Positions 13,751 through 43,851 of a DNA stretch of 44,122 bases are shown here, one piece after another. The stretch is taken from positions 1 through 44,122 of the forward strand of contig CAZFRV010000174.1 in the NCBI GenBank assembly GCA_964521445.1, given 5' to 3'. Both the position numbers and the translations under genes were made by a program. Origin of the DNA: an uncultured Acidobacteriaceae bacterium (GTDB lineage Bacteria > Acidobacteriota > Terriglobia > Terriglobales > Acidobacteriaceae). Under the pieces are notes generated by a model, which was not told the origin of the DNA, did not search any database, and saw only the letters and a program-made list of their open reading frames with translations. Numbering within the stretch: the stretch's first letter is position 1; each line of letters begins with the position of its first letter.

Positions 13751-13760
13751 GAGACAGAAA

Positions 13761-13787: not shown

Positions 13788-13945
13788 CAGCTTGAACACG
13801 TTAAACATGGGCCAGGTTCTCTGACTTGGGCGCTCCGAGTAGTCCCGCAGGTTAGGACCGCGGGAGTCAGCCGACAGTCAGGACCCTGGCTGCCATGTGC
13901 AGCTAGTTAGCGTGTTGAGCGAAGTCTCGGCAGAAGTTGGTTCCG

Positions 13946-27971: not shown

Positions 27972-28775
27972 CTACTGGAGCGTCACGCTGACTTCGGCGC
28001 CCTTGTCAGCTCCGGCCAGGCGCGAGGCCGAGCCCTTGTTGGCGGAGATCTCCAGGAATCCGCTGCTGCCTAGAAGGGCGAAGATCTCGCCGGGCGGACG
28101 CTGGGAATAACTGTCGCACAGATGCGTGACTTCGGCTTTACCGACGGTGATCTTGAAGGACTGGGCTGAGCCGTTAAAGAGTTCGGGGATATCGTTGGGC
28201 GTGATGTTGGTGATCAGATTGCCAAACTTATCTGTCTTGAGGACGGCGGCCTTCCAGGCATTGGGTCCGGCGGGTTTGGGTTTGGGAGCGAGGAAGCGCA
28301 CGTAGTCGCTGATCTCCTCGCCGAACTTGGCGAAGTCCACGCCCTTGCTGAGATACGCAGCTACCGGGGCAAAGATATCGCGCCCATGAAAAGTGTTGCT
28401 CACCGGCTGATGGAAATAATGTTCTGAGGTAATATGGCGCACGCTCACGCGCTCCTCCCGCTCGTAGACCAGGGAAAGCACGCCGTTATCGGGAGCCACG
28501 AATTGGTACATGCCGGCGCTGACCACGATGGGCCGGCGCGGACCGCCAACGCCGGGGTCGACCACCACCAGATGGACAGTGTCCTTTGGGAAATAATGGT
28601 ATGCCTGGGAGATGGCCAACGCGCCATCCAGAATATCGTACGACTGGACCGTGTTGGTAATGTCCACCATGGCGACGTTGGGGTGAATGCTCTGAATAAC
28701 TCCTTTCATTGCACCCACATAATGCTCCGTCAAACCGAAGTCGGTGGTTAAGGTAATCAGTCTTTGAGTTGGCAC
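27972..28775 (-). CDS. SAM hydroxide adenosyltransferase / SAM-dependent chlorinase-fluorinase family (DUF62) protein
   Basis: 267 aa with a GTG start. Has ITLTTDFGLTEHYVGAMKGVI and LVVVDPGVGGPRRPIV, typical of PF01887-type proteins. Confidence 0.85.
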   Translation of the reverse strand: MPTQRLITLTTDFGLTEHYVGAMKGVIQSIHPNVAMVDITNTVQSYDILDGALAISQAYHYFPKDTVHLVVVDPGVGGPRRPIVVSAGMYQFVAPDNGVLSLVYEREERVSVRHITSEHYFHQPVSNTFHGRDIFAPVAAYLSKGVDFAKFGEEISDYVRFLAPKPKPAGPNAWKAAVLKTDKFGNLITNITPNDIPELFNGSAQSFKITVGKAEVTHLCDSYSQRPPGEIFALLGSSGFLEISANKGSASRLAGADKGAEVSVTLQ

Positions 28776-29244: not shown

Positions 29245-30231
29245 ATGGCACGCGAAAGACTGAAGTATGGTGCCGGATTTGGGGAGTTGGTGGGAGAGTC
29301 AGCGCCGATGCAGAGGCTGTATCGGTTGATTGCCCGGGTTTCGTCCAGCAAGCATCCGGTGCTCCTCCTGGGAGAGCGTGGGAGCGGTAAGTCGGCGGTG
29401 GCTCGTGCCATCCATTCTCATGGATTGTTCCCGGAACGTCAGTTTTTGATGGTGGACTGCGTCGTGGCAGGCGCGGCCTTGGCGGAGAGTGAGGTGTTCG
29501 GGCTGGGATCGAATCGGCCCAAGGATGGGTCTCAAGCCGGCCCGCCAGGCACACTCTTTCTGCGCGAGGTTTGGGCCATGCCTCCCATTGTCCAAGCCCG
29601 ACTCGTGCGCGCTTTGCAGGAGCGGGACATCCGCGCTATGGACGGCGAAAGAGCCTCCATGGGAGAGGCGCGTATTATCGCCGCCAGCAGCCGCGACCTT
29701 GACCTGGCCGTCCAGCAAGGGACCTTCCGGCGCGATCTCTACGTTCGATTGAATGTGGTGAGCCTGCAATTGCCTCCCCTGCGCGACCGCAAAGAGGACA
29801 TCGTTCCGCTGGCGGAACACTTCCTCGCGAAGGCCTCTTCCAGCAAGGGTACGCGTTATTCCCTCAGCGCTGAGGCCATTGATGCTCTTATGAATCAGGG
29901 TTGGCCAGGCAACGTGGCCGAGCTGAAAGACTGCCTGGAGTACGCGGTGGCCGCTTCCGCGGGGCCAGTCTTGAGGAGGGAAGATATGCCCCTCAAGTCC
30001 CAGCATGGGGAGCCTGCCGCCGAAGCCAGCGCCCCATCCCCCCAAGGCAGCAAGATCCTGCCGCTGGCGGAGGTGGAAAAGCAGACCATTCTGCGCACGC
30101 TCGAGCGCCTCAACGGCGACAAAGTGATGACCGCGCGGATGCTGGGGATTGGCAAGACCACGCTCTACCGCAAGCTGAAAGAATACGGAGCCAACGACTC
30201 CTGGATCGGCCGTCCCGCTCACAATCGTTGA
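29245..30231 (+). CDS. Sigma54-activator-like AAA+ / Fis-HTH transcriptional regulator. It has no N-terminal sensor domain, and its GAFTGA and Walker B motifs are degenerate.
   Basis: GGAGG RBS followed by ATG 29245. GESAPMQRLYRLI, Walker A GERGSGKS, FRRDLYVRLNV, PPLRDRKEDI, WPGNVAELKD, C-terminal HTH MTARMLGIGKTTLYRKLKEYG. The segment ESEVFGLGSNRPKDGSQAGPPGTLFLREV replaces the canonical ESELFGHEKGAFTGA...GTLFLDEI. Confidence 0.8.
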   Translation: MARERLKYGAGFGELVGESAPMQRLYRLIARVSSSKHPVLLLGERGSGKSAVARAIHSHGLFPERQFLMVDCVVAGAALAESEVFGLGSNRPKDGSQAGPPGTLFLREVWAMPPIVQARLVRALQERDIRAMDGERASMGEARIIAASSRDLDLAVQQGTFRRDLYVRLNVVSLQLPPLRDRKEDIVPLAEHFLAKASSSKGTRYSLSAEAIDALMNQGWPGNVAELKDCLEYAVAASAGPVLRREDMPLKSQHGEPAAEASAPSPQGSKILPLAEVEKQTILRTLERLNGDKVMTARMLGIGKTTLYRKLKEYGANDSWIGRPAHNR

Positions 30232-30328: not shown

Positions 30329-30475
30329 ATGCTTTGGACCATTTTCGCGATCCTGATCGTTCTCTGGCTTCTTGGTTGGGGATTCCACGTGGCCGGCAGC
30401 ATGATCCACCTGCTGCTGGTGATCGCTCTCATCGTGGCCGTCATTAACCTGGTCAGCGGCCGCAAGACTGTCTAG
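30329..30475 (+). CDS. Lmo0937-family small membrane protein (48 aa)
   Basis: MLWTIFAILIVLWLLGWGFHVAGSMIHLLLVIALIVAVINLVSGRKTV matches the two-helix Lmo0937-type pattern (MLWTI...LWLLG...IHLLLVIA...GR). The ORF-track start at 30272 is probably too early. Confidence 0.6.
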   Translation: MLWTIFAILIVLWLLGWGFHVAGSMIHLLLVIALIVAVINLVSGRKTV

Positions 30476-30759
30476 AAAAGCCTGCAAGATGTGCAGTGAT
30501 AGACGCGGGCAATGTCCTGGTCCCTCAACGGGCCCACTCCTGCATTCGTGATTGAACAGCCGAGGTTCGATTCAAGTGTTTTGTTGTGCTTACACTCTCG
30601 ATGGGTTGTCATGCGAGGAAATTGTGTGCAGCCGGTATTGAGAGCCATGAAAGAAGATCGCATCGAGTTCTCGAAGACATCCCAAGTACCTTGTGCCGAT
30701 TCTAACCCACTAATTCCACCTCTCCCCGTGGAACAAATGTAAAACCGGGTTTCAGGAGA

Positions 30760-31563
30760 ATGGCCACAACCCAGACCAATGTGATGACCTATGAGGGCGC
30801 AAAGCCGGCACTCGATGGGAAACAGTTGGCTCGCCGCATCGTCGAGTTGGGCGATTGGTTTCATAACATCGATCTCAACGGCGTGATGACTGCCCCAGAC
30901 CACTTCCTGGGAGACTTTCCCAGAGTCAAGTGGAAACAGATTGCGGCCGGAATTCCCCAGGACCTTTCCGGAGCCACGGTCTTGGATGTCGGTTGCAACG
31001 CCGGATTCTACTGCCTGGAGCTCAAGAAGCGAGGAGCTAGCCGGGTCTTGGGAGTGGACGTGGATGATCGCTATCTTCAGCAAGCCCGGTTTGCCGCCGG
31101 CGTCCTGGGTTTGGATATCGAGCTTGAGAAGTGCTCGGTCTATGACGTGGACCGGATTTCCGGCCAATTCGATTACGTCCTCTTCATGGGAGTTTTTTAT
31201 CACTTGCGCTATCCGCTCTTCGCTTTGGACAAGGTCATCACCAAGGTCCGCCACAAGTTGATTTTTCAGACCATGGTGCGCGGGTCCGTGGTGAGTCCGG
31301 AGTTGCGCGAGGACTATCACTTCTGGAACAAAGACGTGTTCAACAATCCGGATTTCCCCTGCATGTACTTCATAGAAAAAAAATACGCCGGCGACCCCAC
31401 CAACTGGTGGATCCCCAACCACGGCGCCATGGAAGCCATGCTGCGCAGCTCCGGTTTGGAAATAGAAGCTCATCCCGAGGAGGAGACGTGGTTTTGCCGT
31501 CCGGTCCAGGTCACAAGAGAGGGGAAGACGATTCTTGACCATGAACTCGCGGGGACTTTATGA
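30760..31563 (+). CDS. Class I SAM-dependent methyltransferase (DUF1698/CmoB-like; from memory the Rta_06860/TIGR04290-type family)
   Basis: 267 aa. WFHNIDLNGV..., SAM motif I VLDVGCNAGFYCLEL, GASRVLGVDVD, FDYVLFMGVFYHLRYP, NWWIPN. Confidence 0.85.
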   Translation: MATTQTNVMTYEGAKPALDGKQLARRIVELGDWFHNIDLNGVMTAPDHFLGDFPRVKWKQIAAGIPQDLSGATVLDVGCNAGFYCLELKKRGASRVLGVDVDDRYLQQARFAAGVLGLDIELEKCSVYDVDRISGQFDYVLFMGVFYHLRYPLFALDKVITKVRHKLIFQTMVRGSVVSPELREDYHFWNKDVFNNPDFPCMYFIEKKYAGDPTNWWIPNHGAMEAMLRSSGLEIEAHPEEETWFCRPVQVTREGKTILDHELAGTL

Positions 31564-31588
31564 ACCCGCCGGCGTCCGCAGGTGGTGA

Positions 31589-32509
31589 ATGGTTGAAGCA
31601 GTAATGCTTTGGAACGAACCTAACAACTTGTCCCATTGGGATTTCAAGGCGGACTCCCAATGGAAGCGGTTCGCCGAGATGGTGATTACGGCAAGCCGGG
31701 CGCTGCGCCGCGAGAATCCGCAACTGCCGTTGGTGCTGGGAGGCATCTCCCCCATCGATCCAAATTTCATCGCGCTGATGGGCTCGCACGGCGTCCTGGA
31801 CGCCGTGGACGTAGTCGCTGTTCACGGCTTTCCCCTGGATTGGAACCACTGGAGCATTCACGACTGGCCGAAGAGGATCGACGAAATTCGTGCCGTCACC
31901 GACAAGCCGGTGTGGGTCTCCGAAGCGGGCGTCTCCTCTTTTGGCGCCGAAGAAGTGCAGGTCTTTGGATTGCGCCGCACCGCGGAGCTTCTGTTGCCGG
32001 CGGTGGATCGCGTGCACTGGTACAGCTTGCTTGATCTGCCGGCCACATGGACGGCAACCACGCGCCACAAGGAAGCGGAAGGCAGCTCCTACTATCGCCA
32101 TTACTACATGGGGCTGGTGCGCGAAGACGGAACTCCGAAAGCCGCTGCTGCCAGGTTTCCCAAAGGAATGGGCATCTGCCAGTGGTTTCACTTTGAGGAC
32201 CCGCGCCTGGAAATGGCCACAGAGTGGCTCGCGCGGCTTCAAGTGAAGTACTTGCGGACTGGGATCAGCTGGGCGGACTGGTATCGGCCGCGCGCTGAAG
32301 CCTGGTTTGATCGCCAGATGCAGACGCTGGAGCCGTTTACCACAACGTTAACCCTGTGCTTTACGCCGGAGCACCTGGGCGTTTCGCCGCACTACACCAG
32401 CCCGCCGGTGCGAATCGAGGATTTTGCCGAGTTCGCCGTGTGGGCGGCGCGCAAGTACGTTCCATCACGGAAGACATCCGAAATCCTGATAGGAGCAGAG
32501 TCAGCATGA
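31589..32509 (+). CDS. Clan GH-A-like (TIM-barrel glycoside hydrolase-like) protein, apparently circularly permuted
   Basis: 306 aa. LWNEPN lies at residues 7-12 (Glu10) and VWVSEAG at ~108-114 (Glu112). The C-terminal ~90 aa carry beta1-beta3-like motifs (YLRTGISWADW, LTLCFTPEHLG, FAEFAVWAARKY). Confidence 0.7.
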   Translation: MVEAVMLWNEPNNLSHWDFKADSQWKRFAEMVITASRALRRENPQLPLVLGGISPIDPNFIALMGSHGVLDAVDVVAVHGFPLDWNHWSIHDWPKRIDEIRAVTDKPVWVSEAGVSSFGAEEVQVFGLRRTAELLLPAVDRVHWYSLLDLPATWTATTRHKEAEGSSYYRHYYMGLVREDGTPKAAAARFPKGMGICQWFHFEDPRLEMATEWLARLQVKYLRTGISWADWYRPRAEAWFDRQMQTLEPFTTTLTLCFTPEHLGVSPHYTSPPVRIEDFAEFAVWAARKYVPSRKTSEILIGAESA

Positions 32510-33624
32510 GCCAGGATGTTCTAGTCACCGGCGGCGCGGGATTTGTGGGATCGCATCTGGTGGATGCGCTGCTTGCGTCCGGCCACCGGGTGCGGGTCTT
32601 CGACAATCTTACCCAGCAAGTGCACGGCGACAGTGTGCCTGGCTACCTTTCGCCGCACGCCGAGCTGCTGCTGGGAGACATGCGCGACGCGCTCCAAGTC
32701 CGCCGTGCCCTGGAAGGAATGGAGATTGTTGTCCACCTGGCGGCAGCGGTGGGCGTGGGCCAGTCCATGTATGAGATTGCCCATTATCTTGGCGCGAACA
32801 CGCAAGGCACGGCAGTGCTGCTGCAGGAGCTTCTAGACCGCCGCCACCGCGTGCAGAAACTGGTGGTGGCTTCTTCGATGTCGGTCTACGGTGAGGGCCG
32901 GTACCTGTGCGCTCAATGCGGTGAAGCTGCGCCGGGGCTGCGTTCCGCGGAGCAACTCATTCGCCGTCAGTGGGAGCCGGAATGTCCCAGGTGCGGCAGA
33001 GCATTGACGCCCGTCGCCACCGATGAGTCCAAGCCGCCGCAGCCGAGCTCCATGTACTCGCTGTCCAAAAGAGATCAGGAGGAAATGTGCCTCCTCTTCG
33101 GACGCACCTATGGTCTCCCAGTTGTCGCGTTGCGCTATTTCAACATCTACGGGCCGCGCCAGGCGCTCTCCAACCCGTACACCGGCGTGGCGGCGATCTT
33201 CGCCTCGCGGCTGCTCAACGGAAACGCTCCGCTGATTTTTGAGGACGGAAGACAGATGCGCGACTTCGTGAACGTGGCCGACGCGGTCCAGGCCACGCTG
33301 CTGGCCATGAAGAGTCCGGGAGCCGATGGCCAGGCCCTCAATGTCGGTTCGGGTGAGCCTGTTTCCATCCGCGAAGTGGCGGCAGCGCTGGCCGGCGCGC
33401 TCGAGAGTGAGACTGCGCCGGAGCTGACCGGAAAGTATCGTTCTGGCGACATACGCCATTGCTTCGCCGACATCGCTGCGGCAAGAAAGATGCTGGGATA
33501 CGCGCCTTGCATCAGTTTGGTCCAGGGAGTAGATGAGCTAGTGAGATGGTTGCGTTCGCAGCAACCGCAAGATCGCGCGGCGGAAGCCGTGGCCCGACTC
33601 AGCAGTTTCGGGCTCACGGCCTGA
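32506..33624 (+). CDS. NAD-dependent epimerase/dehydratase (extended SDR) with a CxxC...CxxC insertion
   Basis: ATG 32506 overlaps the upstream stop (ATGA). VLVTGGAGFVGSHL, catalytic YSLSK, and the insertion CAQCGE...CPRCG. Confidence 0.85.
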   Translation: MSQDVLVTGGAGFVGSHLVDALLASGHRVRVFDNLTQQVHGDSVPGYLSPHAELLLGDMRDALQVRRALEGMEIVVHLAAAVGVGQSMYEIAHYLGANTQGTAVLLQELLDRRHRVQKLVVASSMSVYGEGRYLCAQCGEAAPGLRSAEQLIRRQWEPECPRCGRALTPVATDESKPPQPSSMYSLSKRDQEEMCLLFGRTYGLPVVALRYFNIYGPRQALSNPYTGVAAIFASRLLNGNAPLIFEDGRQMRDFVNVADAVQATLLAMKSPGADGQALNVGSGEPVSIREVAAALAGALESETAPELTGKYRSGDIRHCFADIAAARKMLGYAPCISLVQGVDELVRWLRSQQPQDRAAEAVARLSSFGLTA

Positions 33625-33646
33625 GCCGGCGATCGCCGGGGGAAGA

Positions 33647-34750
33647 ATGAAGACGCATCAGGCCCGTTCTGTGCTGATCTTTGGCGGCGCCGGTTTCATC
33701 GGCACCAACCTTGCGCAGCACCTCCTCGACAGGACGGACGCGACGGTACACATCTTCGATAACCTCAGCCGGGCCGGCGTGCACCGCAATTTGCAGTGGC
33801 TGAGAAAGGCATCGGCGGGTTCCGGACGCCTCCGCGTGACTTTCGGCGACGTGCGCGACCCCCGCCTGGTGACGAAAGCCGTGGCCCAGGCCAGCGAGAT
33901 TTATCATTTTGCCGCGCAGGTGGCCGTGACCACTTCCATCGTTGATCCGCGCCTGGACTTCGAAGTCAACCTCGGCGGGACCTTCAACATCCTGGATGCC
34001 GCGCGCCGCGCCGGGCACCGGCCTTTTCTGCTCTTTAGTTCCACCAACAAAGTGTACGGAGACTTAGGGCTGGGTACACCGGTGGAGGGACCGAGCCGCT
34101 ACTCTTACCCTGAGCACCGCGGTGTCTCGGAATTGCAGCCTCTGGACTTTCACTCTCCCTACGGTTGCTCCAAGGGTGCGGCGGACCAGTACGTCCGTGA
34201 CTTCGGCCAGATTTACGGCTTGCCCACCGTGGTCTTTCGCATGTCCTGCATTGCCGGTCCGCGGCAATTTGGCACGGAAGACCAGGGATGGGTGGCCCAC
34301 TTCCTCTATTCCGCCCTGCAACATCAGCCGGTCACGATCTACGGCGACGGTCGCCAGGTGCGTGATGTGCTCTGCGTTCATGATCTGGTGCGCGCCTTCG
34401 AAGCCGTGCAACGTGCGCTGCCTCTGACCGCCGGCCAGACCTACAACGTGGGCGGCGGCGCCGGCAATGCCGTTTCGCTTCTGGAGTTGATCGACAAGAT
34501 CGAAAAACAGATCGGATACCGGCTGGAGTACACGCTGGAGGGCAGCCGCCCGGGCGACCAGCTCGTTTATTTGACGGACTACAGCAAGATCTCCCGGCAT
34601 ACCGGCTGGAAACCTGAAATCACTTTGCCGAAGACGCTGGAGCTTCTCCAGGAATTCTGGGAGCAGAACCAGGGAGCCCTCTCAGGCCGGCGCAAGGCGC
34701 CTCCGCGCGAAACTCTGGCCTGGGCGCAACTTTCAGGAAAAGCCGCATGA
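33647..34750 (+). CDS. NAD-dependent epimerase/dehydratase (extended SDR; CDP-paratose-2-epimerase-like)
   Basis: VLIFGGAGFIGTNLAQHL, FSSTNKVYGD, YGCSKGAADQY. Confidence 0.85.
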   Translation: MKTHQARSVLIFGGAGFIGTNLAQHLLDRTDATVHIFDNLSRAGVHRNLQWLRKASAGSGRLRVTFGDVRDPRLVTKAVAQASEIYHFAAQVAVTTSIVDPRLDFEVNLGGTFNILDAARRAGHRPFLLFSSTNKVYGDLGLGTPVEGPSRYSYPEHRGVSELQPLDFHSPYGCSKGAADQYVRDFGQIYGLPTVVFRMSCIAGPRQFGTEDQGWVAHFLYSALQHQPVTIYGDGRQVRDVLCVHDLVRAFEAVQRALPLTAGQTYNVGGGAGNAVSLLELIDKIEKQIGYRLEYTLEGSRPGDQLVYLTDYSKISRHTGWKPEITLPKTLELLQEFWEQNQGALSGRRKAPPRETLAWAQLSGKAA

Positions 34751-36051
34751 AATTTGCCCTGGTCAATCCGAACTGGGACTTCGCCGGCTCGACTTACTTT
34801 GGCTGCCGCGAGCCGCACCTGCCGCTGGAGCTGATGTTTTCCGCCGCACAGATTTGCGCCGCGGGACATGAGCCGCTGCTGGTGGATGCGCATATCGGCA
34901 AGTTGAGTCTCGCAGCTGCTAAACGAAAAGTTGATGCCTTCCAGCCGGATTTTCTGGTGATTCCCACCGCTCCGACTTACCTCTTCTGGCGCTGTCCGCC
35001 CCCGGAGCTGCGCGTGCCTATGGAATGGATGCAAGCCATGAGTCCAGAAGCGGTGAAAGTCATCATCGGTCCGCATGCCTCGGCGACGCCAGGAGCAGCC
35101 ATCCGCAAGACAGGTTGCGCCGTGGCTTTGCGCGGCGAGCCGGACCAGACGCTGGCCGAGCTGCCAAGCCGGCCCTGGAGTGAGATCGCGGGCTGCTGCT
35201 TCAGGACTGACGGAGGAATCCACCTGAGTGGATCCTTGGGCGCGGCCGACATGAACGCTTTGGCGCCGCTCGATTTTCATAACTACCACGTGGAGGCCCA
35301 CCGCCATCGCCACCATGTATTCACCGCCGATCAGGGGCTTGGTGCAGAGTTGGAATTTGCACGCGGCTGTCCCTGGACCTGCACCTTCTGCAATAAGACT
35401 CTGTTTCGCAACAAATTCCGCGAGCGCAATGTGGAGGCCGTCCTGGAAGAAGTGGATGCCCTGACGGCGCGCGGCGTGGACTACATCTATTTCATCGACG
35501 AGGTCTTCGGCGTGGGCAAGAATGTGCGGCGCCTGCTGGAGGGGATCGCCGAACGTCCGGTCAAGATCGGGATGCAGACCAGGATCGATCTCTGGGACGA
35601 AGAGACGCTGGAGCTGCTGGGGCGCGCTCATTGCATTTCCATGGAGTGCGGCATCGAAGCGATCAGCGCGGAGGGCCGCGAAGACCTGAACAAGAATTGC
35701 CACATCGATACCGGGCGCATCGCCGAGCTGCTGATCTTTGCCCGCGGGCGCATTCCCTGGGTCCAGGCGAATCTGGTCCTTACCGAGAGAGACGATCGGC
35801 AGCAGATACGGGCATGGCAAGAGCATCTTCGCGCACGCGGCGTCTGGGCCAGCGAGCCGGTGCCCATGTTTCCTTTTCCGGGAAGTCCCTTGTACGTGCA
35901 AACTTTCGGCGCGCCTCCCGATGATGAAGCCTGGGAGAGGGCCCACCACTACTACACGACAACGTTTGCCGCCAAGGGCTATAGCGACATCCAGGAACAG
36001 AAGCCGGTTCCCATCGAGGATCTGGAGAATGCATATCTTAGTCACCGCTGA
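34747..36051 (+). CDS. B12-binding domain / radical SAM domain protein
   Basis: ATGA overlap with the upstream gene. The N-terminal Rossmann-like B12-type region begins MKFALVNPNW...GHEPLLVDAH. The radical SAM cluster motif is ARGCPWTCTFCNK (CxxxCxxC). Confidence 0.85.
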   Translation: MKFALVNPNWDFAGSTYFGCREPHLPLELMFSAAQICAAGHEPLLVDAHIGKLSLAAAKRKVDAFQPDFLVIPTAPTYLFWRCPPPELRVPMEWMQAMSPEAVKVIIGPHASATPGAAIRKTGCAVALRGEPDQTLAELPSRPWSEIAGCCFRTDGGIHLSGSLGAADMNALAPLDFHNYHVEAHRHRHHVFTADQGLGAELEFARGCPWTCTFCNKTLFRNKFRERNVEAVLEEVDALTARGVDYIYFIDEVFGVGKNVRRLLEGIAERPVKIGMQTRIDLWDEETLELLGRAHCISMECGIEAISAEGREDLNKNCHIDTGRIAELLIFARGRIPWVQANLVLTERDDRQQIRAWQEHLRARGVWASEPVPMFPFPGSPLYVQTFGAPPDDEAWERAHHYYTTTFAAKGYSDIQEQKPVPIEDLENAYLSHR

Positions 36052-37135
36052 TACCGTCGGCGGCGTTTGGACATACGTGCGGGAACTGGTGACGGGAATG
36101 GTCGGTCGCGGCGTGCGAGTAACGTTAGTGAGCTTTGGAGGCGCTCCCTCCCCGGGCCAGACGCGATGGATGGAGCAGCTCTCCCGTCTGGACTATCGCC
36201 CCACCACTTTCAAGCTGGAGTGGATGCAGGACTCCGCGGCCGACATGGAGGCCTCGTCGGAATTCCTGTGCGAGATCATTCGCGAAACCAAGCCCGACCT
36301 GATTCACTCCAACCAGTTCTATTACGGCGCCCTTGATTGCGACGTGCCCCGCGTGGTCGTGGCGCATAGTGATGTGGTGAGCTGGTGGGTTGCCGTTCAT
36401 GGCGAAGAGCCGCCGCAAAGTTCATGGATGAGCTGGTACCGTGCCGCAGTTGTGCGCGGGCTGGCTGCGGCGACCGCGGTGATTGCCCCTTCGCGATGGA
36501 TGCTCGACCAGGTGCAGCGCTATTACGTAAAGCCGAATCGGCGTGCCGTGATTTACAACGGACGCACACCCGCCTTGTTCAATCCTGGCATGAGCAAGGA
36601 CGAGACCATCTTGACCGCGGGTCGGTTGTGGGACCAGGGTAAGAACACCAGGCTGCTGCTCGCAGCCGAAATGCCGGGGCAGGTTCAAATCGTGGGCGCT
36701 TGTCAGCAGCCGCGATCGGCGGGCAAGGGACCTGTTTCTGGGGAAGCCGCAACCAATGTTCACTTTTTCCCGCAGCAGGATGAGCAGCAGATAGCCGGCT
36801 TTCTTGCCCGTGCGGCGATTTACGCGGTTCCTTCACGTTATGAGCCTTTCGGGCTGGCTCCGCTGGAGGCGGCGCTCTCCGGCTGCGCGCTCGTTGCCAG
36901 CGATATACCGTCCTTACGCGAATTGTGGCAGGGCGCAGCGGTCTTCTTTCCCAGTAACGATGCCGCCGAACTGCGCCAGGCGCTCAAACTTCTGATAAAC
37001 GGTCCATGCCTCCGCCGGCGATATGCCGGCCTGGCATACGACCACGCCGTCCGCAAGTTCAACGCTGCGCGGATGAGCGACGATTACATGGAGCTCTACC
37101 GGGCCTTGGCTCCGGCCGCAGTGGCCGCTGCATGA
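36029..37135 (+). CDS. Glycosyltransferase family 4 (GT-B, Glycos_transf_1)
   Basis: ATG 36029 (MHILVTADTVGGVWTYVREL) overlaps the rSAM gene by 23 nt. The C-terminal half has SRYEPFGLAPLEAALSGCALVASD, an E-x7-E type region. Confidence 0.8.
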   Translation: MHILVTADTVGGVWTYVRELVTGMVGRGVRVTLVSFGGAPSPGQTRWMEQLSRLDYRPTTFKLEWMQDSAADMEASSEFLCEIIRETKPDLIHSNQFYYGALDCDVPRVVVAHSDVVSWWVAVHGEEPPQSSWMSWYRAAVVRGLAAATAVIAPSRWMLDQVQRYYVKPNRRAVIYNGRTPALFNPGMSKDETILTAGRLWDQGKNTRLLLAAEMPGQVQIVGACQQPRSAGKGPVSGEAATNVHFFPQQDEQQIAGFLARAAIYAVPSRYEPFGLAPLEAALSGCALVASDIPSLRELWQGAAVFFPSNDAAELRQALKLLINGPCLRRRYAGLAYDHAVRKFNAARMSDDYMELYRALAPAAVAAA

Positions 37136-38253
37136 AGCGAACACTCAACATCGCGCTCTTCTCGCACTCCCTGGTCTCAGACTGGAACCATGGCAATGCG
37201 CACTTCCTGCGCGGTCTGGCCCGTGAACTGGGACGCATGGGTCATCGAGTGCGGTGTTACGAGGAGTTGGGCTGCTGGTCGCTGACCAATTTGATGAAGC
37301 ATGAGGGCCCAGTCGCCATTCAGACCATCGATCGTTTTCGGGCTGCCTATCCTGAACTGGACGTTCGCTTTTACCAGTCGTCGCACGCAGAGTTCCAGCA
37401 TTTCCTACGGCAAGAGCTGCGAGAAACCCACATTGTGATTTTGCACGAATGGAATGATCCCAAGCTGGTCAACAGCGTGCTGGCGCTCAAACAGAAGCAC
37501 GGTTTCATCGTGCTGCTCCATGACAGCCATCACCGAGCCTACACATGTGCGCACGAGATTCTGCGTTTCCACCTGCACCTGCTGGATGGCGTGCTGGCGT
37601 TTGGAGAGGCGATTCGCCGCATCTATTCCGATGGCTTCGGCCTGGCTCGCACATGGACCTTCCACGAGGCCGCGGACGTAAGCCAGTTTGGGCCTTTGAA
37701 CCGCGCCAAGGAGATCGACCTGGTGTGGATCGGCAATTGGGGCGACGGCGAGCGCACCCGCGAACTGGAGGAGTTCCTGGTGATGCCTGCGGCCGCGCTG
37801 CCGAAACGGCGCGTGGTGGCGCACGGCGTCCGCTATCCCGAGCCCGGGCTCGAAAAGCTTCGCCAGGCTGGGATCGAATACCGCGGATATCTGCCCAACC
37901 TGGCATCCGCGGAAGTTTATTCCGCGAGCGCCGTCGCTCTGCACGTCCCCAGGCAGCAGTATGCCAACGGATTAAGCGGCATCCCTACCATCCGCGTGTT
38001 TGAGGCGCTGGCCTGCGGCGTCCCGCTGCTGTGCTCCCCCTGGAACGACGATGAAGGGTTGTTCCATCCGGGACTGGATTACCTGCTGGTGCGCGACGGA
38101 AGACAGATGAAAGCGGAATGGGAGAATTTGTTGCGCGATCCCGCAGCGCGTCAGCAGATCGCCGGGCACGGCATGAAGACGATTCGCGAGCGCCACACCT
38201 GCGCGCATCGCGCCCGGCAACTCACCACAATTTGCGAGGAGCTTGGCGCATGA
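37132..38253 (+). CDS. CgeB-family (DUF3880 / Glyco_trans_1_2-type) glycosyltransferase-like protein, paralog 1
   Basis: ATGA overlap. LNIALFSHSLVSDWNHGNAHFLRGLARELGRMGHRV and RVFEALACGVPLLCSPW. Confidence 0.75.
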   Translation: MKRTLNIALFSHSLVSDWNHGNAHFLRGLARELGRMGHRVRCYEELGCWSLTNLMKHEGPVAIQTIDRFRAAYPELDVRFYQSSHAEFQHFLRQELRETHIVILHEWNDPKLVNSVLALKQKHGFIVLLHDSHHRAYTCAHEILRFHLHLLDGVLAFGEAIRRIYSDGFGLARTWTFHEAADVSQFGPLNRAKEIDLVWIGNWGDGERTRELEEFLVMPAAALPKRRVVAHGVRYPEPGLEKLRQAGIEYRGYLPNLASAEVYSASAVALHVPRQQYANGLSGIPTIRVFEALACGVPLLCSPWNDDEGLFHPGLDYLLVRDGRQMKAEWENLLRDPAARQQIAGHGMKTIRERHTCAHRARQLTTICEELGA

Positions 38254-39353
38254 AGATCTTTGTCTTCGGCTCGAGCATTACTTCTTCCTACTGGAACGGA
38301 GCGGCGACCTACTACCGCGGCATCTACAAGCAGCTTCACGCTCGGGGCCACCAGGTCACATTTGCTGAACCCGAAGCCTACGGCCGACAGCAAAAACGAG
38401 ATGCGGAAGATTTCTCGTACGTGAGTTCCATCGTGTACCGAAGCGCCGGCGACATTCCTTCGTTGCTCAAGCAGGCCGGTGAGTGTGACTTGGTTGTCAA
38501 GCACAGCGGCGTCGGAGTCTTTGACGCGCTGCTGGAGAGCGGCGTCTTGAAGACTCGATCGCGGGACGCGAAGGTCGCCTTTTGGGATGTAGATGCTCCC
38601 GCCACTCTGGCGCGACTTGACCAAAACCCGGCCGACCCGTTCCGCAGCCTGATCCCGGAGTACGACTTCATCTTTACTTACGGAGGCGGGCAGCCGGTGG
38701 TGGATCGCTATCTTCGCCTGGGAGCCGCTAATTGCCATCCTATTTACAACGCGCTCGATTCAGAGACGCACTACGCCGTTTCTCCCGACCCGGCCTGGCA
38801 ATGTGACCTGGCCTTTATGGGGCATCGCCTGCCCGATCGCGAACGGCGCGTGGAAGAATTCTTCCTGCGTGCCGCCGAGCTGGCTCCGGAACAGAAGTTC
38901 CTGCTGGGCGGCGAAGGATGGGCCGGCAAACCTTTGCCCGCGAATGTTCTCTGGATCGGACACATCGCCAGTCACGAGCACAACCGAGTGAACTGTTCGG
39001 CGCGCTTGGTGCTGAATATCAACCGCGAGTCCATGGCGGATGCGGGCTTCTCTCCGCCGACGCGCATCTTTGAAGCGGCCGGGGCCGGCGCATGCGTGGT
39101 TACCGATTCGTGGGCCGGGATCGAAAGCTTCTTTACGCCGGGGCGCGAAATCCTGCTGGCCGCCAGCGCGGAGGAGGTTGTGCAACATCTAAGAAAGTGC
39201 TCCCAGCCGGAAGCTGTTGCGATCGGCGAAAACATGCGGCAAAGGGCGTTGCGGGAACATACGTACCAACTTCGCGGGCAAGCGTTCGAGTCGATTGTGA
39301 AGAAAGCCCGGGCCTGGGCAGGTAGAAACCAGCAGCTGGTACCTAGTGGCTGA
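38250..39353 (+). CDS. CgeB-family glycosyltransferase-like protein, paralog 2
   Basis: ATGA overlap. MKIFVFGSSITSSYWNGAATYYRGIYKQLHARGHQV and RIFEAAGAGACVVTDSWAGIESFFTPGREILLA. Confidence 0.75.
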   Translation: MKIFVFGSSITSSYWNGAATYYRGIYKQLHARGHQVTFAEPEAYGRQQKRDAEDFSYVSSIVYRSAGDIPSLLKQAGECDLVVKHSGVGVFDALLESGVLKTRSRDAKVAFWDVDAPATLARLDQNPADPFRSLIPEYDFIFTYGGGQPVVDRYLRLGAANCHPIYNALDSETHYAVSPDPAWQCDLAFMGHRLPDRERRVEEFFLRAAELAPEQKFLLGGEGWAGKPLPANVLWIGHIASHEHNRVNCSARLVLNINRESMADAGFSPPTRIFEAAGAGACVVTDSWAGIESFFTPGREILLAASAEEVVQHLRKCSQPEAVAIGENMRQRALREHTYQLRGQAFESIVKKARAWAGRNQQLVPSG

Positions 39354-39357
39354 CTTT

Positions 39358-40464
39358 ATGAAAATCACCATCTTCGGGCTGTCTATCACATCTTCCTGGG
39401 GTAACGGACACGCCACTACGTTCCGCGCGCTTTGCCAGGCGCTCCAGCGACGCGGCCATCGCATTGTTTTTTTCGAACACGACCAGGAATGGTATGCGGG
39501 CAACCGCGATCTTCCAGGACCGCCCTATTGTGAAGTCCGGATTTTTGAGAGCTGGAAAGAAATTCGTTCGACAGTGCGTTCGGAGTTGCGCGCCTCCGAC
39601 GTGGCCGTGGTCGGTTCCTATGTTCCGGACGGGATCGCCGCGCTGGACGAGGTCTTGGATTCGAATGTGCGGGTCAAGGCCTTCTATGACATCGATACCC
39701 CTATCACCGTAGGACAACTGCGACGATGCGGTGCAACCGGGTACTTGCTGCCACGGCATCTGGCCGGTCTGGACGTCTATTTCAGCTTCACCGGCGGTCC
39801 TTTGTTGCAAGAGCTGGAGTCGAAATACGGCGTGCGGTTTGCTGTCCCCTTGTACTGTTCCGTGGATCCGGACCGCCACCGCGCACTGCCGGTGAATCCC
39901 GACTATGCCTGCGATCTTAGCTACATGGGGACCTACGCGGCGGATCGACAGCCCAAGCTCGAAGAGTTGTTGTGTCGTCCCGCAGGCCGTCTCCCGCGAA
40001 AGAGATTCATCATCGCGGGCCCGCAGTACCCGCCTTCCATTGCTTGGCCTGGCAACGTGAAACGGGTCTTACATCTCAGTCCGCGCCATCATGCCGCGCT
40101 TTATTGTTCGTCGCGGCTGACGCTGAACGTTACCCGCCGTGACATGGTCATGGCGGGTTACTCGCCTTCGGTCCGGCTGTTTGAAGCAGCAGCGTGCGGC
40201 GCGACTATCGTGTCGGACAACTGGCCCGGCCTGGAGACTTTCTTTGCTCCCGGAAGGGAAGTCTTGCTCGCCGCTGGCAGCGATGACGTGGTGCGTTACA
40301 TCTCGGAGTATGAGGCCGGCGAATTGCGCGGGATCGGCGGCGCCGCGCGGGAGCGCGTGCTCGCGGATCACACCAATGATATTCGCGCCGGTGAATTTGA
40401 ACGGGCAGTGGAAATCGCCGGACGCCAAAGAAAGGAGGCTAAGGTCCTGGCGGCGGAGACGTAG
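39358..40464 (+). CDS. CgeB-family glycosyltransferase-like protein, paralog 3
   Basis: MKITIFGLSITSSWGNGHATTFRALCQALQRRGHRI and RLFEAAACGATIVSDNWPGLETFFAPGREVLLA. An alternative GTG start is at 39346. Confidence 0.75.
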   Translation: MKITIFGLSITSSWGNGHATTFRALCQALQRRGHRIVFFEHDQEWYAGNRDLPGPPYCEVRIFESWKEIRSTVRSELRASDVAVVGSYVPDGIAALDEVLDSNVRVKAFYDIDTPITVGQLRRCGATGYLLPRHLAGLDVYFSFTGGPLLQELESKYGVRFAVPLYCSVDPDRHRALPVNPDYACDLSYMGTYAADRQPKLEELLCRPAGRLPRKRFIIAGPQYPPSIAWPGNVKRVLHLSPRHHAALYCSSRLTLNVTRRDMVMAGYSPSVRLFEAAACGATIVSDNWPGLETFFAPGREVLLAAGSDDVVRYISEYEAGELRGIGGAARERVLADHTNDIRAGEFERAVEIAGRQRKEAKVLAAET

Positions 40465-40588
40465 TTCTTGCTCCACGCCGAGAGAAACCGAGCTGCGCTG
40501 AGTAGCTTGTGCCGGTGAATCGAGCCATCGGAAGAAACACCGGCGCGCTGGCATGCATCTATCGAGATAGTAATCCTTTTTTGCGCCA

Positions 40589-41638
40589 ATGAGAGTAGCT
40601 TTAGTCGCCCCTCCGTTTATTACTGTCCCTCCGCAGAGGTATGGCGGTACAGAGTTGTTCGTTGCGGAACTAGCTTTAGGTCTGCAGCAAGAGGGAATTG
40701 ATGTTACGGTGTACACCAACGGTGAGTCTGTCATCGACTGTCCCATCCGATGGCTCTATGAAAAGGGAGAATGGCCGCTCAGCGGGGAAGTCGAGGCGGC
40801 GTTGGAGGGCCTGAATCACGCAGCCTGGGCCATTAAGGAAGCCGCGGCTGAATCCGACGTTATCCATCTGAACAACGCACCGGCATTGACAGCTTCCAGG
40901 TTTGTCGACGTCCCGCTGGTCTTTACCGTGCACCACGCCCATGATGCGCCGCTGGCCGAGTTCTACCGCCTGTTCCCTCGGGTTTCCTACGTGACCATCA
41001 GCCGCTTTCAGCAAAGCACTTTGCGGATGCCCTGCATGCGGGCCATTCATCACGGGATTGACGTTTCCCGATACCTGTTCCAGGAACGCAAACAGCCGTA
41101 TCTGAGTTTTCTGGGCCGAGTGGCGCCTTCCAAGGGCACGCACTTGGCGATAGAGATCGCCAAGAAGTCGGGGATCCCCCTGAAAATCGCCGGCGAAATC
41201 CAACCCTGCTATGAGGATTACTGGAAGAACGTAGTCAAGCCGCTGGTCGACGGCCGGTTCATTGAGTACGTGGGAGAAGTGGGCCTGGAAGAAAAAAATG
41301 AACTGCTGGGAAACTCTCTGGCCATGCTCTTTCCCATCCAGTGGGATGAACCGTTCGGATTGGTCATGATTGAAGCCATGGCCTGCGGCACTCCGGTGCT
41401 GGCCATACCCGGCGGGTCAGTGGAGGAGGTGGTTCGCGAAGGGATCAGCGGCCATGTTCGCGGTACCGCGGCGGAACTGGTTGCCTGTGCCCGCGACCTA
41501 AAGATTGACGCCAAGTCCGTCCGCAGATATGTGGAGAAGTACTTCTCCGCGGAGCGCATGGCGAGAGATTACATCCGCCTGTACAAAGAGCTGGCGCACG
41601 ACCAGACTGATTTCGAGGTGGAAGGCCTGGTGGCATGA
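40589..41638 (+). CDS. Glycosyltransferase family 4 (GT-B)
   Basis: MRVALVAPPFITVPPQRYGGTELFV, QWDEPFGLVMIEAMACGTPVLA. A 124-nt gap precedes it. Confidence 0.85.
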   Translation: MRVALVAPPFITVPPQRYGGTELFVAELALGLQQEGIDVTVYTNGESVIDCPIRWLYEKGEWPLSGEVEAALEGLNHAAWAIKEAAAESDVIHLNNAPALTASRFVDVPLVFTVHHAHDAPLAEFYRLFPRVSYVTISRFQQSTLRMPCMRAIHHGIDVSRYLFQERKQPYLSFLGRVAPSKGTHLAIEIAKKSGIPLKIAGEIQPCYEDYWKNVVKPLVDGRFIEYVGEVGLEEKNELLGNSLAMLFPIQWDEPFGLVMIEAMACGTPVLAIPGGSVEEVVREGISGHVRGTAAELVACARDLKIDAKSVRRYVEKYFSAERMARDYIRLYKELAHDQTDFEVEGLVA

Positions 41639-43851
41639 GCGCCAAGCTGATTGTCTCTCCCAGCGACCTGGTGGAAATCCCTTCGCCTTACCCCGAGCCG
41701 CGCATTGCCTTCCAGAACGCTGAGCCACGCAAGGCCCACAACCTCACTCTGATCGATGGGAAAACTTTTCTCTCCACCACGCTCTCGGGCGACATCATGC
41801 CTCCGGGAGCTCCCGATGCCGGCCTCTTCTATGATGACACGCGTTTCCTGAGCCGCCTGGAGCTGCGCGTGGGCGGATATCGCACGGTAGTCCTGTCGTC
41901 GAGCACGGAGCAGACTTTCGTTTCGCAGATCGAGCTGACCACCGGCCAGATCACGCTCCGCGAGACGTATGAGATCCCGGAGAACACGGTGCATATCCGG
42001 CGCGAGCAATTGCTGGCCTCCGATATCTTCTACGACCATCTCACTTTCGAGAATTTCAATTTCAATGACGTGAAGCTGGCTATCGAACTGGCTTTTGAGG
42101 CGGATTTTATGGACGTCTTCCAGGTGCGCGGCGTGGCCCGGCAGCGCCTGGGGCACTACTACAAGCCGATTGTGCACAGCGACTCCATCATTTTTCACTA
42201 TTGCGGCCTGGACGGCGTGACCCGCAACACCGCTGTCCGCTTCTCGCCCGAGCCGGAGCATGTAGATGGCACCACGGCGCGCTGGCAATTGCCGCTGGCT
42301 CCGTTCAAGCGCTTTCAATTGCAATGCACGGTTGTGCCCCAGGTAGCCGGGAAGCATTGCCGCGCCGGACGGCCGGATTTTCCCCAGCAGGTCCGCTCGC
42401 GTCGGGAAGCTTTTGCCGCCTGGGAAGAGCGCTCCACTCACTTCAATTCCAACAATCGTATCTTCGAGCAGATGCTGGGTACCTCCAAGGGCGACTTTCA
42501 TGCCCTGCAAATCCCCGAAGGCAAGGAGCATGTGATCGCCGCCGGCATTCCTTGGTTTGCCACCATGTTCGGACGGGATTCCATCCTTGCCGCTTACCAG
42601 TCCTTGCTGCTCAGCCCGCGACTGGCCAGCGAAACCTTGCGTGTCCTGGCGCGCTTCCAGGGCGACAAACACGACGACTGGCGTGACGAACAGCCCGGCA
42701 AGATCCTGCATGAGTTTCGTGAAGGCGAGATGACGCGTGCCAACGAGGTCCCGTTCAGCCCGTACTACGGGTCGGTGGACGCGACGCCGCTGTGGCTGAT
42801 CCTGCTGAGCGAGACCTACAACTGGAACGCCGATGAACAACTGGTCGCCGACATGCTGCCCCACGCCTATCGCGCGCTCGAATGGATCGAGCGTTATGGC
42901 GACCTGGATGGTGACGGCTTTGTCGAGTATCAGCGGCGTTCGCCGCGGGGCCTGGCCAACCAGGGTTGGAAGGATTCCTGGGATGCCATCATGCACCGCG
43001 ACGGCCAGATCGCCAAAGCTCCCATCGCGTTGTGCGAGGTGCAGGGTTACGTCTATGAAGCCAAATACCGTATGGCTTCGCTCTTGCGCGCCTTTGGCGA
43101 CTCGGCCACCGCCGATAAGCTCAAGAAAGAAGCCACGGAGATGGCCCGGCGCTTTGAGAAGGCTTACTGGATGCCGTCGCGCGGCTTCTACGCGCTGGCG
43201 CTCGACGGCGAAAAACGCCAGGCCCAGGTCGTCTCCTCCAATCCCGGGCATCTTTTGTTCACACGCATGTTGACGCAGGAGCGCGCGCGGACCATCACCA
43301 AGCGTTTTATGCGTCCGGACATGTTTTCCGGCTGGGGCTGGCGGACGATGTCACAGGAAGAGCGGGTCTTCAACCCGCTCAGCTATCATCGTGGCTCGGT
43401 ATGGCCGCATGACAACTCGATCGTCGCCCACGGCATGGCTCTCTATGAGTTCCGCGAGCCCGCGAACGAAATTTTCAACGCGCTGTTTCAGGCCGCGCTG
43501 AATTTTCGCGACTATCGCCTGCCCGAACTTTTCTGCGGCATCGAACGCCGCGAGTACGATGAGCCGGTGCAGTATCCCGTCTCTTGTTCCCCGCAGGCAT
43601 GGGCTTCGGGAGCGGTGTTTCTTTTCCTGACGTCGGTGTTGGGCATTCGTCCCAGCGCGCCTCGCAGGGAGTTGAACATCGTCAGCCCCACTCTGCCGCC
43701 CTTTCTGGATCAGTTGAACATCCGCAACATGCAGGTGGGAGGCAGTCGCGTGGACCTGGACTTTACACGCCGCGGAGATCGGACTTTCTGCAACTGCGTG
43801 GACATACACGGCGACAAGTTGCTGGTGAACGTGGTGTTCAAGAAAAAATAG
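41635..43851 (+). CDS. Amylo-alpha-1,6-glucosidase / glycogen-debranching-enzyme-like protein (GDE N-terminal domain plus (alpha/alpha)6 GDE_C domain)
   Basis: 738 aa with an ATGA overlap. GIPWFATMFGRDS, GKILHEFREGEM, YYGSVDATPLW, GWKDSWD, SYHRGSVWPHDN. Confidence 0.85.
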   Translation: MSAKLIVSPSDLVEIPSPYPEPRIAFQNAEPRKAHNLTLIDGKTFLSTTLSGDIMPPGAPDAGLFYDDTRFLSRLELRVGGYRTVVLSSSTEQTFVSQIELTTGQITLRETYEIPENTVHIRREQLLASDIFYDHLTFENFNFNDVKLAIELAFEADFMDVFQVRGVARQRLGHYYKPIVHSDSIIFHYCGLDGVTRNTAVRFSPEPEHVDGTTARWQLPLAPFKRFQLQCTVVPQVAGKHCRAGRPDFPQQVRSRREAFAAWEERSTHFNSNNRIFEQMLGTSKGDFHALQIPEGKEHVIAAGIPWFATMFGRDSILAAYQSLLLSPRLASETLRVLARFQGDKHDDWRDEQPGKILHEFREGEMTRANEVPFSPYYGSVDATPLWLILLSETYNWNADEQLVADMLPHAYRALEWIERYGDLDGDGFVEYQRRSPRGLANQGWKDSWDAIMHRDGQIAKAPIALCEVQGYVYEAKYRMASLLRAFGDSATADKLKKEATEMARRFEKAYWMPSRGFYALALDGEKRQAQVVSSNPGHLLFTRMLTQERARTITKRFMRPDMFSGWGWRTMSQEERVFNPLSYHRGSVWPHDNSIVAHGMALYEFREPANEIFNALFQAALNFRDYRLPELFCGIERREYDEPVQYPVSCSPQAWASGAVFLFLTSVLGIRPSAPRRELNIVSPTLPPFLDQLNIRNMQVGGSRVDLDFTRRGDRTFCNCVDIHGDKLLVNVVFKKK

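Follow-up and report, generated by a model that had tools for sequence, protein, structure and literature searches.

An acidobacterial 'rhizo-twelve' cassette with a nine-gene core shared with Alphaproteobacteria, and its possible role in making a tailored intracellular glycan

What does a bacterium make with eleven closely packed genes that combine a radical S-adenosylmethionine (SAM) enzyme, a SAM-dependent methyltransferase, several glycosyltransferases and epimerases? The question is raised by a 44,122-nucleotide (nt) stretch of acidobacterial DNA (contig CAZFRV010000174.1 of assembly GCA_964521445.1, hereafter the window), in which the cluster occupies positions 30760-43851. An earlier reading made from the letters alone (the sequence-only reading) had pointed to a conserved cassette called the 'rhizo-twelve system', and this identification proved right. 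The methyltransferase g1 matches the hidden Markov model (HMM) TIGR04290 (meth_Rta_06860) with 363.4 bits against a curated cutoff of 300 (match 1-226 of 226), and the radical SAM protein g5 matches TIGR04295 (B12_rSAM_oligo) with 617.2 bits against a cutoff of 400 (match 1-422 of 422). Both marker genes lie in one co-directional cluster together with several glycosyltransferases and epimerases. Judged by these scores, the locus is an acidobacterial (Candidatus Angelobacter-like) member of the TIGR04290/TIGR04295 'rhizo-twelve' cassette, and its membership is established. Close homologs of g5 are named 'B12-binding domain/radical SAM domain protein of rhizo-twelve system' at JGI and 'TIGR04295 family...' at NCBI. 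Among the cassette models put forward in the sequence-only reading the two named ones matched; no other cassette-specific NCBIfam model did so for the remaining nine proteins. The genes of the cluster are as follows.

30760-31563, + strand: g1, SAM-dependent methyltransferase of the TIGR04290 family (363.4 bits)
31589-32509, + strand: g2, predicted circularly permuted TIM barrel of clan GH-A, GH39/PslG-like (PslG similarity, AlphaFold2 model)
32506-33624, + strand: g3, extended short-chain dehydrogenase/reductase (SDR), sugar-nucleotide 4-epimerase-like (closest solved relatives)
33647-34750, + strand: g4, extended SDR, CDP-tyvelose 2-epimerase-like, a putative sugar-nucleotide C2 epimerase (9RL0, 1ORR)
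34747-36051, + strand: g5, radical SAM protein of the TIGR04295 family with a B12-binding-type N-terminal domain (617 bits)
36029-37135, + strand: g6, retaining GT-B glycosyltransferase of family GT4 (Glyco_transf_4 and Glycos_transf_1)
37132-38253, + strand: g7, CgeB-like glycosyltransferase, paralog 1 (PF13524, E 2.6e-33)
38250-39353, + strand: g8, CgeB-like glycosyltransferase, paralog 2 (PF13524, E 2e-36)
39358-40464 (alternative start GTG 39346), + strand: g9, CgeB-like glycosyltransferase, paralog 3 (PF13524, E 9.5e-36)
40589-41638, + strand: g10, GT4 glycosyltransferase, accessory in Acidobacteria (Pfam)
41635-43851, + strand: g11, homolog of archaeal-type glycogen-debranching enzymes, accessory, with GDE_N_bis and (alpha/alpha)6 GDE_C/MGH1-like domains (Pfam; PDB 7VMA)

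The listing and translation of the open reading frames (ORFs) reproduced every detail of the coupled, co-directional arrangement that had been described for these eleven genes. Five junctions are ATGA stop/start overlaps (at 32506, 34747, 37132, 38250 and 41635) and g5 and g6 overlap by 23 nt (36029-36051). The intergenic gaps measure 25 nt (g1/g2), 22 nt (g3/g4) and 4 nt (g8/g9), the last becoming an 8-nt overlap if g9 uses GTG 39346 instead of ATG 39358; the largest, 124 nt at 40465-40588, lies 5' of g10. Domain scans and hydropathy likewise agree with the claim that exporters and priming enzymes are missing. Pfam and NCBIfam scans of the eleven proteins found no Wzx, Wzy or ABC exporter, priming transferase, polymerase, chain-length regulator or sugar-1-phosphate nucleotidyltransferase domain, none of the proteins contains a 19-residue window above 1.65 on the Kyte-Doolittle scale, and none starts with a signal-peptide-like N-terminus; all eleven products are predicted to be soluble. 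Rfam and tRNA scans of the window revealed no RNA element, and scans for sigma-70 and terminator consensus sequences gave no signal above background, including any terminator-like site in the g9-g10 gap.

Conservation of gene order defines the extent of the system. Relatives of g5 were scanned for in one genome per species and occur in 439 species-level genomes, from which the best 80 loci were compared with the window proteins by tblastn. Nearly all of these belong to metagenome-assembled genomes (MAGs) of Terriglobales or Candidatus Angelobacter, the nearest (L001) being about 90% identical. The order regulator-g1-...-g9 recurs at 50-90% amino acid identity in more than 40 species-level acidobacterial loci. 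Genes g10 and g11 share a single distribution and follow g9 in most acidobacterial loci; they are missing from that position in L009, L019, L054 and L014, where unrelated genes stand instead.

Alphaproteobacterial isolates carry the cassette too, on a plasmid and on the chromosome in Bradyrhizobium and also in Azospirillum, Tistrella and a strain of Geminicoccaceae. At 33-63% identity, every gene from g1 to g9 pairs best with an ortholog of its own in these replicons, except for g4, which Azospirillum lacks, and the order g3-g9 is identical. In Bradyrhizobium the two marker genes likewise share one co-directional cluster with several glycosyltransferases and epimerases. The g6 ortholog adjoins the radical SAM gene in all four cassettes, the methyltransferase arm is divergently transcribed in Azospirillum, and in Tistrella and Geminicoccaceae the methyltransferase is placed after the transferases. 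Since the isolates carry orthologs in the same g3-g9 order, the cross-phylum core is g1-g9, and g10-g11 are a lineage-specific acidobacterial addition. The synteny comparison that had been suggested for the cassette thus yielded orthologs of all nine core genes. The proposed eleven-gene unit stands for g1-g9, which are kept across phyla, and falls for g10-g11, which are not part of the cross-phylum unit. The same order in the acidobacterial loci, together with the alphaproteobacterial orthologs, argues for a functional linkage of g1-g9.

A wider distribution read from MAG labels was rejected. Contigs labelled 'Limnocylindrales' (L002) and 'Actinomycetota' (L020) match the window at 76-78% identity in a gene-by-gene comparison, and in L002 the acidobacterial flanking genes are present as well. 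Both are probably mis-binned acidobacterial DNA, and the cross-phylum evidence therefore rests on the isolate plasmids and chromosomes. Full-text literature searches on the two models, on the system by name and on the locus tags Rta_068xx of Ramlibacter returned no paper on the system, and searches on EcfG with inositol-phosphate synthase and on 7VMA returned nothing relevant. The cassette is flagged by databases, through HMMs and annotation, and the acidobacterial form is a lineage-specific variant of it.

The enzyme that gives the cassette its character is g5. The CxxxCxxC motif (C208/C212/C215) is invariant among homologs, and both profile and fold indicate a B12-binding-type N-terminal domain, the combination expected of TIGR04295 proteins. 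The AlphaFold2 model (predicted template modelling score, pTM, 0.84) gave full-length Foldseek matches to MgmA, TsrM, OxsB, AprD4, TokK and CysS with template modelling (TM) scores of 0.6-0.69, at 13-18% sequence identity to enzymes of the TsrM/MgmA/TokK/OxsB/AprD4 type, and the g5 profile reaches the cobalamin (Cbl) domain of TokK and TsrM. The modelled fold places g5 among the class-B radical SAM enzymes. The family is common, with 5,075 metagenome protein matches. Further cysteines (C20, C83, C296 and C318) are invariant and a His-rich stretch (H185-H190) is conserved in both phyla, and a second metal site in g5 is possible.

Protein g2 matches no Pfam or NCBIfam family, although annotation pipelines label its relatives 'beta-xylosidase' and the family comprises at least 8,000 metagenome proteins. 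The GH-A-like protein recognised in the sequence-only reading was recovered here in an unusual form. Similarity to PslG (GH39) is weak (E 1.7e-4) and the alignment runs from PslG residue 132 onward; g2 starts directly at the WNEPN acid/base motif. This motif (E10) and the VSEAG nucleophile motif (E112) are invariant in 27 homologs and align with the catalytic motifs of PslG and of a Tistrella fusion protein, with the acid/base on strand 4 and the nucleophile on strand 7. In Tistrella and Geminicoccaceae a g2-type domain in canonical order is fused to the N-terminus of g4, giving proteins of 682-684 amino acids (L083, 8956-11004; L084, 8950-11004). Residues 5-193 of g2 align with residues 120-306 of the Tistrella fusion, and residues 194-295 with fusion residues 15-113. 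The AlphaFold2 model (pTM 0.81) has eight strands and eight helices and starts at beta4; E112 falls on canonical strand seven, and residues 194-295 form beta1-beta3, so that the chain departs from the canonical beta1-to-beta8 order. Foldseek returned partial matches only, to GH5, GH2, GH53 and GH128 barrels with TM scores of about 0.42, as is expected for a permutant. Alignments and model together identify g2 as a probable circularly permuted, cytoplasmic GH-A enzyme that keeps both catalytic glutamates. The fusion to g4 ties this hydrolase-like domain to a sugar-nucleotide step. Both the permuted barrel and this fusion with a 2-epimerase also deserve attention as cases of enzyme evolution.

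The two SDRs appear to act on different positions of a nucleotide sugar. The closest solved relatives of g3 are 6WJB (7e-48), 4ZRM, MoeE5 and WbpP, which groups it with 4-epimerases; SSMSVYG and YxxxK motifs are present. An insert of about 40 amino acids, peculiar to the family, is kept in the alphaproteobacterial orthologs without its four cysteines; a zinc ribbon formed by the CxxC...CxxC pair was for that reason discarded. Protein g4 is closest to CDP-tyvelose 2-epimerases (9RL0, 3e-85; 1ORR, 1.6e-74), the best 4,6-dehydratase being 1G1A at 2e-39, and its motif is SSTNKVYG (STNK), not the STDE of dehydratases; it resembles a CDP-tyvelose-2-epimerase-type SDR, and this is its predicted activity. 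The solved relatives of g1, all weak, are ToxA, the sugar O-methyltransferase EvdMO1, CmoB and WbdD. The three CgeB-like paralogs each pair with a distinct alphaproteobacterial ortholog (41-46% identity for g7, 47-51% for g8 and 48-50% for g9), from which we infer that they diverged anciently. The CgeB-like profile reaches BshA, sucrose-phosphate synthase, GlgM and MshA, with PimA/PimB lower in the list; these are retaining GT4 enzymes, most of them with soluble acceptors.

The accessory pair supplies whatever connection the cluster has to alpha-glucans. The protein of amylo-alpha-1,6-glucosidase type noted earlier is indeed present: g11 aligns with the archaeal-type debranching enzyme 7VMA at E 1.8e-96 over residues 63-672 (about 610). 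The best NCBIfam matches of g10 lie far below their cutoffs (Agl16; glgA_Coryne TIGR02149 at 63.5 against 302.4 bits), as does that of g6 to TIGR02149 (51.9 bits, cutoff 302.4). The proposed alpha-glucan link depends solely on g10-g11, a pair that the alphaproteobacterial cassettes and some acidobacterial loci lack, and it does not extend to the core. Nor was ordinary glycogen metabolism, which had been named as the finding that would overturn the cassette reading, borne out: g10 is not a GlgA equivalog by score, and Pfam and NCBIfam scans found no GlgB, GlgC or GlgP in the cluster. The g9-g10 spacer (40465-40588 in the window) varies from 55 to 243 nt among loci and shares only a weak GCATCT about 35 nt 5' of the g10 ATG; an internal promoter 5' of g10 is possible.

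The alphaproteobacterial cassettes contain genes that bear on the acceptor. The Bradyrhizobium form has 15 genes in two operons. The first encodes an inositol-3-phosphate synthase, a histidine phosphatase, a fourth CgeB-like transferase, a sugar-1-phosphate nucleotidyltransferase, g1, g2 and a bona fide phosphopentomutase, the second g3-g9 and a UXS-like SDR. These extras point to a self-contained supply of activated sugar and to an inositol-type soluble acceptor, and the module of inositol-3-phosphate synthase and phosphatase recurs in Azospirillum. Neighbours in the alphaproteobacterial replicons include genes for a Mn catalase, a ferritin-like protein, Ku and cytochrome oxidase. Two Bradyrhizobium loci have GGAAC-N16-CGTT, a consensus known from EcfG general-stress promoters, 75-88 nt 5' of the gene that opens the cassette, and imperfect matches stand ahead of the second operon (L082, 3039 and 9700-9730; L085, 1096 and 7761), about 0.3 matches per locus being expected by chance. 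In Tistrella a gene for an extracytoplasmic function (ECF) sigma factor lies directly 5' of the cassette (L083, 6866-7636). A role in bradyrhizose biosynthesis was considered, given that photosynthetic Bradyrhizobium carry the cassette, and was rejected since it is also found in many other Bradyrhizobium, in Afipia, in Azospirillum and in Acidobacteria; no paper with both 'bradyrhizose' and 'radical SAM' surfaced.

Regulation of the acidobacterial form is organised differently. The features upstream of g1 are:

29245-30231, + strand: AAA+ enhancer-binding-protein-like regulator with Sigma54_activat and HTH_8 domains (Pfam, NCBIfam)
30329-30475, + strand: 48-amino-acid small membrane protein of the lmo0937 family (NF033488, 51 bits, cutoff 30)
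30676-30705, + strand: bipartite motif GACATCC-N18-TCTAA, ending 54 nt 5' of the g1 ATG

The regulator gene precedes g1 in about 40 related loci. Its product has a Walker A motif and a Fis-type helix-turn-helix, has no receiver domain, and carries ESEVFGLGSNRPKDGSQAGPPG at the position expected for GAFTGA. No -24/-12 site (TGGCAC-N5-TTGC-like, up to 2 mismatches) was found upstream of g1. Because GAFTGA is missing and such a site is lacking, control by sigma-54 was rejected and the regulator probably acts independently of it. A recurrent 'TTGGACGATTTTTGCA' site was likewise set aside, being coding sequence of the small lmo0937-like ORF. The better candidate for a control element is the bipartite motif. 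In the degenerate form GRCATCC-N18-TCTAA it has one exact match in the window and exactly one per locus in 43 related loci. Every copy is on the + strand and, wherever the contig includes g1, lies 5' of that gene; the spacing of the motif is fixed in 39 of 40 upstream regions, and no second copy lies 5' of g10. It is a probable operon promoter or operator.

A perfect inverted repeat, TTCCAC-N8-GTGGAA (30714-30733), stands between this motif and the g1 ribosome-binding site; its arms are kept and its loop is variable in L001, L003, L005, L006 and L015, and it could be an operator or a 5' hairpin. The lmo0937-family gene, 83-92% identical in 34 loci, encodes the sole membrane protein near the cluster. 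Divergently adjacent is a gene for a DUF62/(R)-SAM hydrolase-like protein (27972-28775, - strand) that scores below the NCBIfam cutoff; the synteny extends to about 35 loci. The gene may be connected with the SAM-consuming cluster, or the arrangement could simply reflect common ancestry.

What the cassette may do can now be proposed. We give an even chance to a pathway that operates in the cytoplasm, may be induced by stress, and makes an oligosaccharide or glycoside that is methylated or tailored by radical chemistry. Its cytoplasmic location is argued from the lack of transmembrane segments and signal peptides and from the lack of exporter and priming genes in the inspected loci. In such a pathway g3 (C4 epimerase-like) and g4 (2-epimerase-like) would diversify the nucleotide-hexose pool from primary metabolism, and the soluble GT-B transferases g6, g7, g8 and g9 would each add one residue, giving a short, defined cytoplasmic oligosaccharide or glycoside. 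O-Methylation of the product would fall to g1. The signature step on a sugar carbon would be carried out by g5, most likely as a cobalamin-dependent C-methylation, or alternatively as an AprD4-type radical dehydration completed by an SDR. The permuted barrel g2 may trim, recycle or transglycosylate the product, and g10 and g11 would add an alpha-glucan-type synthase/hydrolase pair in this lineage. GRCATCC-N18-TCTAA is the probable start site of expression, with the neighbouring AAA+ regulator probably in control. If the EcfG-type promoters of the Bradyrhizobium cassettes are a guide, the cassette probably yields a glycan or solute that stays inside the cell and is related to stress. More tentatively, and at a clearly lower level of confidence, the cassette may make an intracellular glycan or glycoside of a class not described before, anchored to inositol in rhizobia, in which a sugar carbon is methylated or deoxygenated by a cobalamin-type radical SAM enzyme in ordinary stress physiology, and which would serve as a widespread stress protectant or storage molecule of soil bacteria.

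Several observations weigh against this proposal. Pfam B12-binding (PF02310) gives no match to the window g5 at E <= 1e-3, although it is recorded for about half of the homologs, and the best TM score of g5 is to AprD4, an enzyme that does not use Cbl. Homology underlies every enzymatic assignment, and in several cases it is weak: for g1 and the CgeB-like transferases, the matches to solved relatives have E-values of 1e-6 to 1e-10. The flanking genes (DUF62 SAM-hydrolase-like and the 48-amino-acid lmo0937-family ORF) are syntenic too, and synteny within Terriglobales therefore partly reflects shared ancestry. Some Acidobacteriaceae (L072-L079) carry a g5 homolog of about 70% identity alone or with only a g4 homolog, so that g5 is not strictly tied to the cassette by position. 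The inositol module that hints at the acceptor has no counterpart in the acidobacterial loci, the window included: searching within about 10 kb, tblastn found no inositol-3-phosphate synthase, histidine phosphatase, nucleotidyltransferase, phosphopentomutase or UXS-like SDR in the window or the 80 loci, and the sole matches to the proteobacterial extras in Acidobacteria are generic SDR and glycosyltransferase paralogs. To our knowledge GRCATCC-N18-TCTAA fits no sigma-factor consensus, including those of sigma-70 and sigma-54. Finally, the link to stress is carried over from another phylum and depends on consensus matches.

Four other explanations were weighed, and each is less well supported than the cytoplasmic pathway. 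The first, which we regard as unlikely, is that the cassette is the sugar-supply and glycosyltransferase module of a surface polysaccharide, be it exopolysaccharide (EPS), capsule or lipopolysaccharide O-chain, with export and priming genes elsewhere. Surface glycans are typically encoded by clusters with many epimerases and GT4 enzymes, the nearest solved relative of g2 is PslG, the hydrolase of the Psl exopolysaccharide locus, and WbdD, among the weak relatives of g1, is an O-antigen terminating methyltransferase. However, neither the four alphaproteobacterial isolates nor dozens of acidobacterial loci have a membrane or export component in or beside the cassette, and g2 has no signal peptide, unlike periplasmic PslG-type enzymes. 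The CgeB-like profile is nearest to soluble-acceptor transferases, though the lipid-acceptor enzymes PimA/PimB stand lower in its list, and the proteobacterial inositol-phosphate synthase and phosphatase module points to a soluble acceptor. Neither the window nor the related loci inspected contain a membrane, export or priming component, and the earlier argument against a classical EPS or O-antigen locus is upheld.

An improbable second explanation is that the soluble transferases decorate a cytoplasmic or envelope protein or structure with a methylated glycan. CgeB has been implicated in glycosylation of the Bacillus spore crust, and the cassette has three PF13524 CgeB-like transferases and no lipid-carrier machinery; a conserved gene for a small membrane protein (30329-30475) also lies between regulator and g1 in 34 loci. 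However, no candidate acceptor gene is common to acidobacterial and alphaproteobacterial cassettes, and the inositol-phosphate and nucleotidyltransferase accessories better fit a small-molecule acceptor. Flagellin was considered in this context. A solitary g5 homolog (L073, 10001-11293) lies about 4 kb from fliD/fliC in L073 and in its close relative L075; this was found in that one pair only and is taken as coincidence.

Still less probable is a biosynthetic gene cluster for a secondary metabolite resembling an aminocyclitol or oligosaccharide antibiotic, in which the radical SAM enzyme would tailor a sugar in the manner of GenK or AprD4. In Bradyrhizobium an inositol-phosphate synthase occurs together with a class-B radical SAM enzyme, SDRs and glycosyltransferases, which does recall aminoglycoside clusters; AprD4 is a close structural match to g5, and EvdMO1 is a relative of g1. 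Against these resemblances stand the lack of aminotransferase, resistance and export genes, an unusually high conservation (70-90% identity across many species, 46-63% between phyla), the chromosomal position of the cassette in many Bradyrhizobium strains, and the EcfG-type stress promoters, which fit physiology rather than antibiosis. Least probable of all, and very much so, is that the cluster is not one system but a row of adjacent unrelated units, including ordinary glycogen metabolism by g10-g11: the 124-nt gap 5' of g10, the absence of g10-g11 from some loci and from the proteobacterial cassettes, and the strong similarity of g11 to an archaeal-type debranching enzyme would agree with it, but g1-g9 are joined by overlaps and cross-phylum synteny, g10 scores 63.5 against 302 bits for GlgA in a cluster that has no GlgB, GlgC or GlgP, the operon-start motif occurs only once per locus, and no terminator-like site stands out in the g9-g10 gap.

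If the cytoplasmic pathway is real, with an intracellular methylated glycan made by radical chemistry, C-H functionalisation of carbohydrates by class-B radical SAM enzymes would extend beyond antibiotic pathways into general physiology, and the dominant, barely cultivable soil Acidobacteria would have a new candidate stress or storage compound. The value of the system lies in its abundance in soil metagenomes and in the appearance of a class-B radical SAM enzyme in apparently ordinary carbohydrate physiology. The culturable carriers Bradyrhizobium and Azospirillum make the question directly testable. Elsewhere in the window, three very large + strand ORFs (890, 1826 and 1405 amino acids, 11078-23631) contain DUF11, SdrD_B, CarboxypepD_reg and beta-helix repeats and probably encode surface or adhesin-like proteins unrelated to the cluster.

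Parts of the cassette resemble several known systems. The accessory proteins g11 and g10 are like the archaeal-type debranching enzyme 7VMA and GlgA-type GT4 enzymes, respectively, but other glycogen genes do not accompany them and the pair is accessory. With PslG and other GH39 enzymes g2 shares the NEP acid/base motif, the TEAG/SEAG nucleophile motif and the (beta/alpha)8 architecture; it differs in being permuted from beta4, cytoplasmic, unmatched in Pfam and, in some lineages, SDR-fused. Radical SAM enzymes that tailor sugars are known from antibiotic biosynthesis: GenK, GenD1 and MoeK5 depend on cobalamin, and AprD4 is a diol-dehydratase that works with the reductase AprD3. The modelled g5 has the two-domain fold of TsrM, MgmA, TokK, OxsB and AprD4 and is encoded between SDRs and glycosyltransferases, but its context is not an antibiotic cluster.

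In its logic the cassette comes closest to the mycobacterial polymethylated polysaccharides (methylglucose lipopolysaccharides, MGLP, and methylmannose polysaccharides, MMP), cytoplasmic glycans whose pathways use soluble transferases of GT4 type, SAM methyltransferases and a hydrolase of their own and include no export genes. A radical SAM enzyme, CgeB-like transferases and a pair of 2-/4-epimerases are missing from those pathways, and the likeness is one of logic. True relatives are the alphaproteobacterial rhizo-twelve cassettes, which share with the window both marker proteins above cutoff, orthologs of g1-g9, the order SDR-(SDR)-radical SAM-GT4-three CgeB-like transferases, and soluble products. 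Compared with the 15-gene Bradyrhizobium form, the window is without the inositol-3-phosphate synthase, histidine phosphatase, sugar-1-phosphate nucleotidyltransferase, phosphopentomutase, fourth CgeB-like transferase and UXS-like SDR. It has in addition a GT4 enzyme and a debranching-enzyme homolog, and in place of the EcfG-type promoters of the proteobacterial form it has the AAA+ regulator and GRCATCC-N18-TCTAA.

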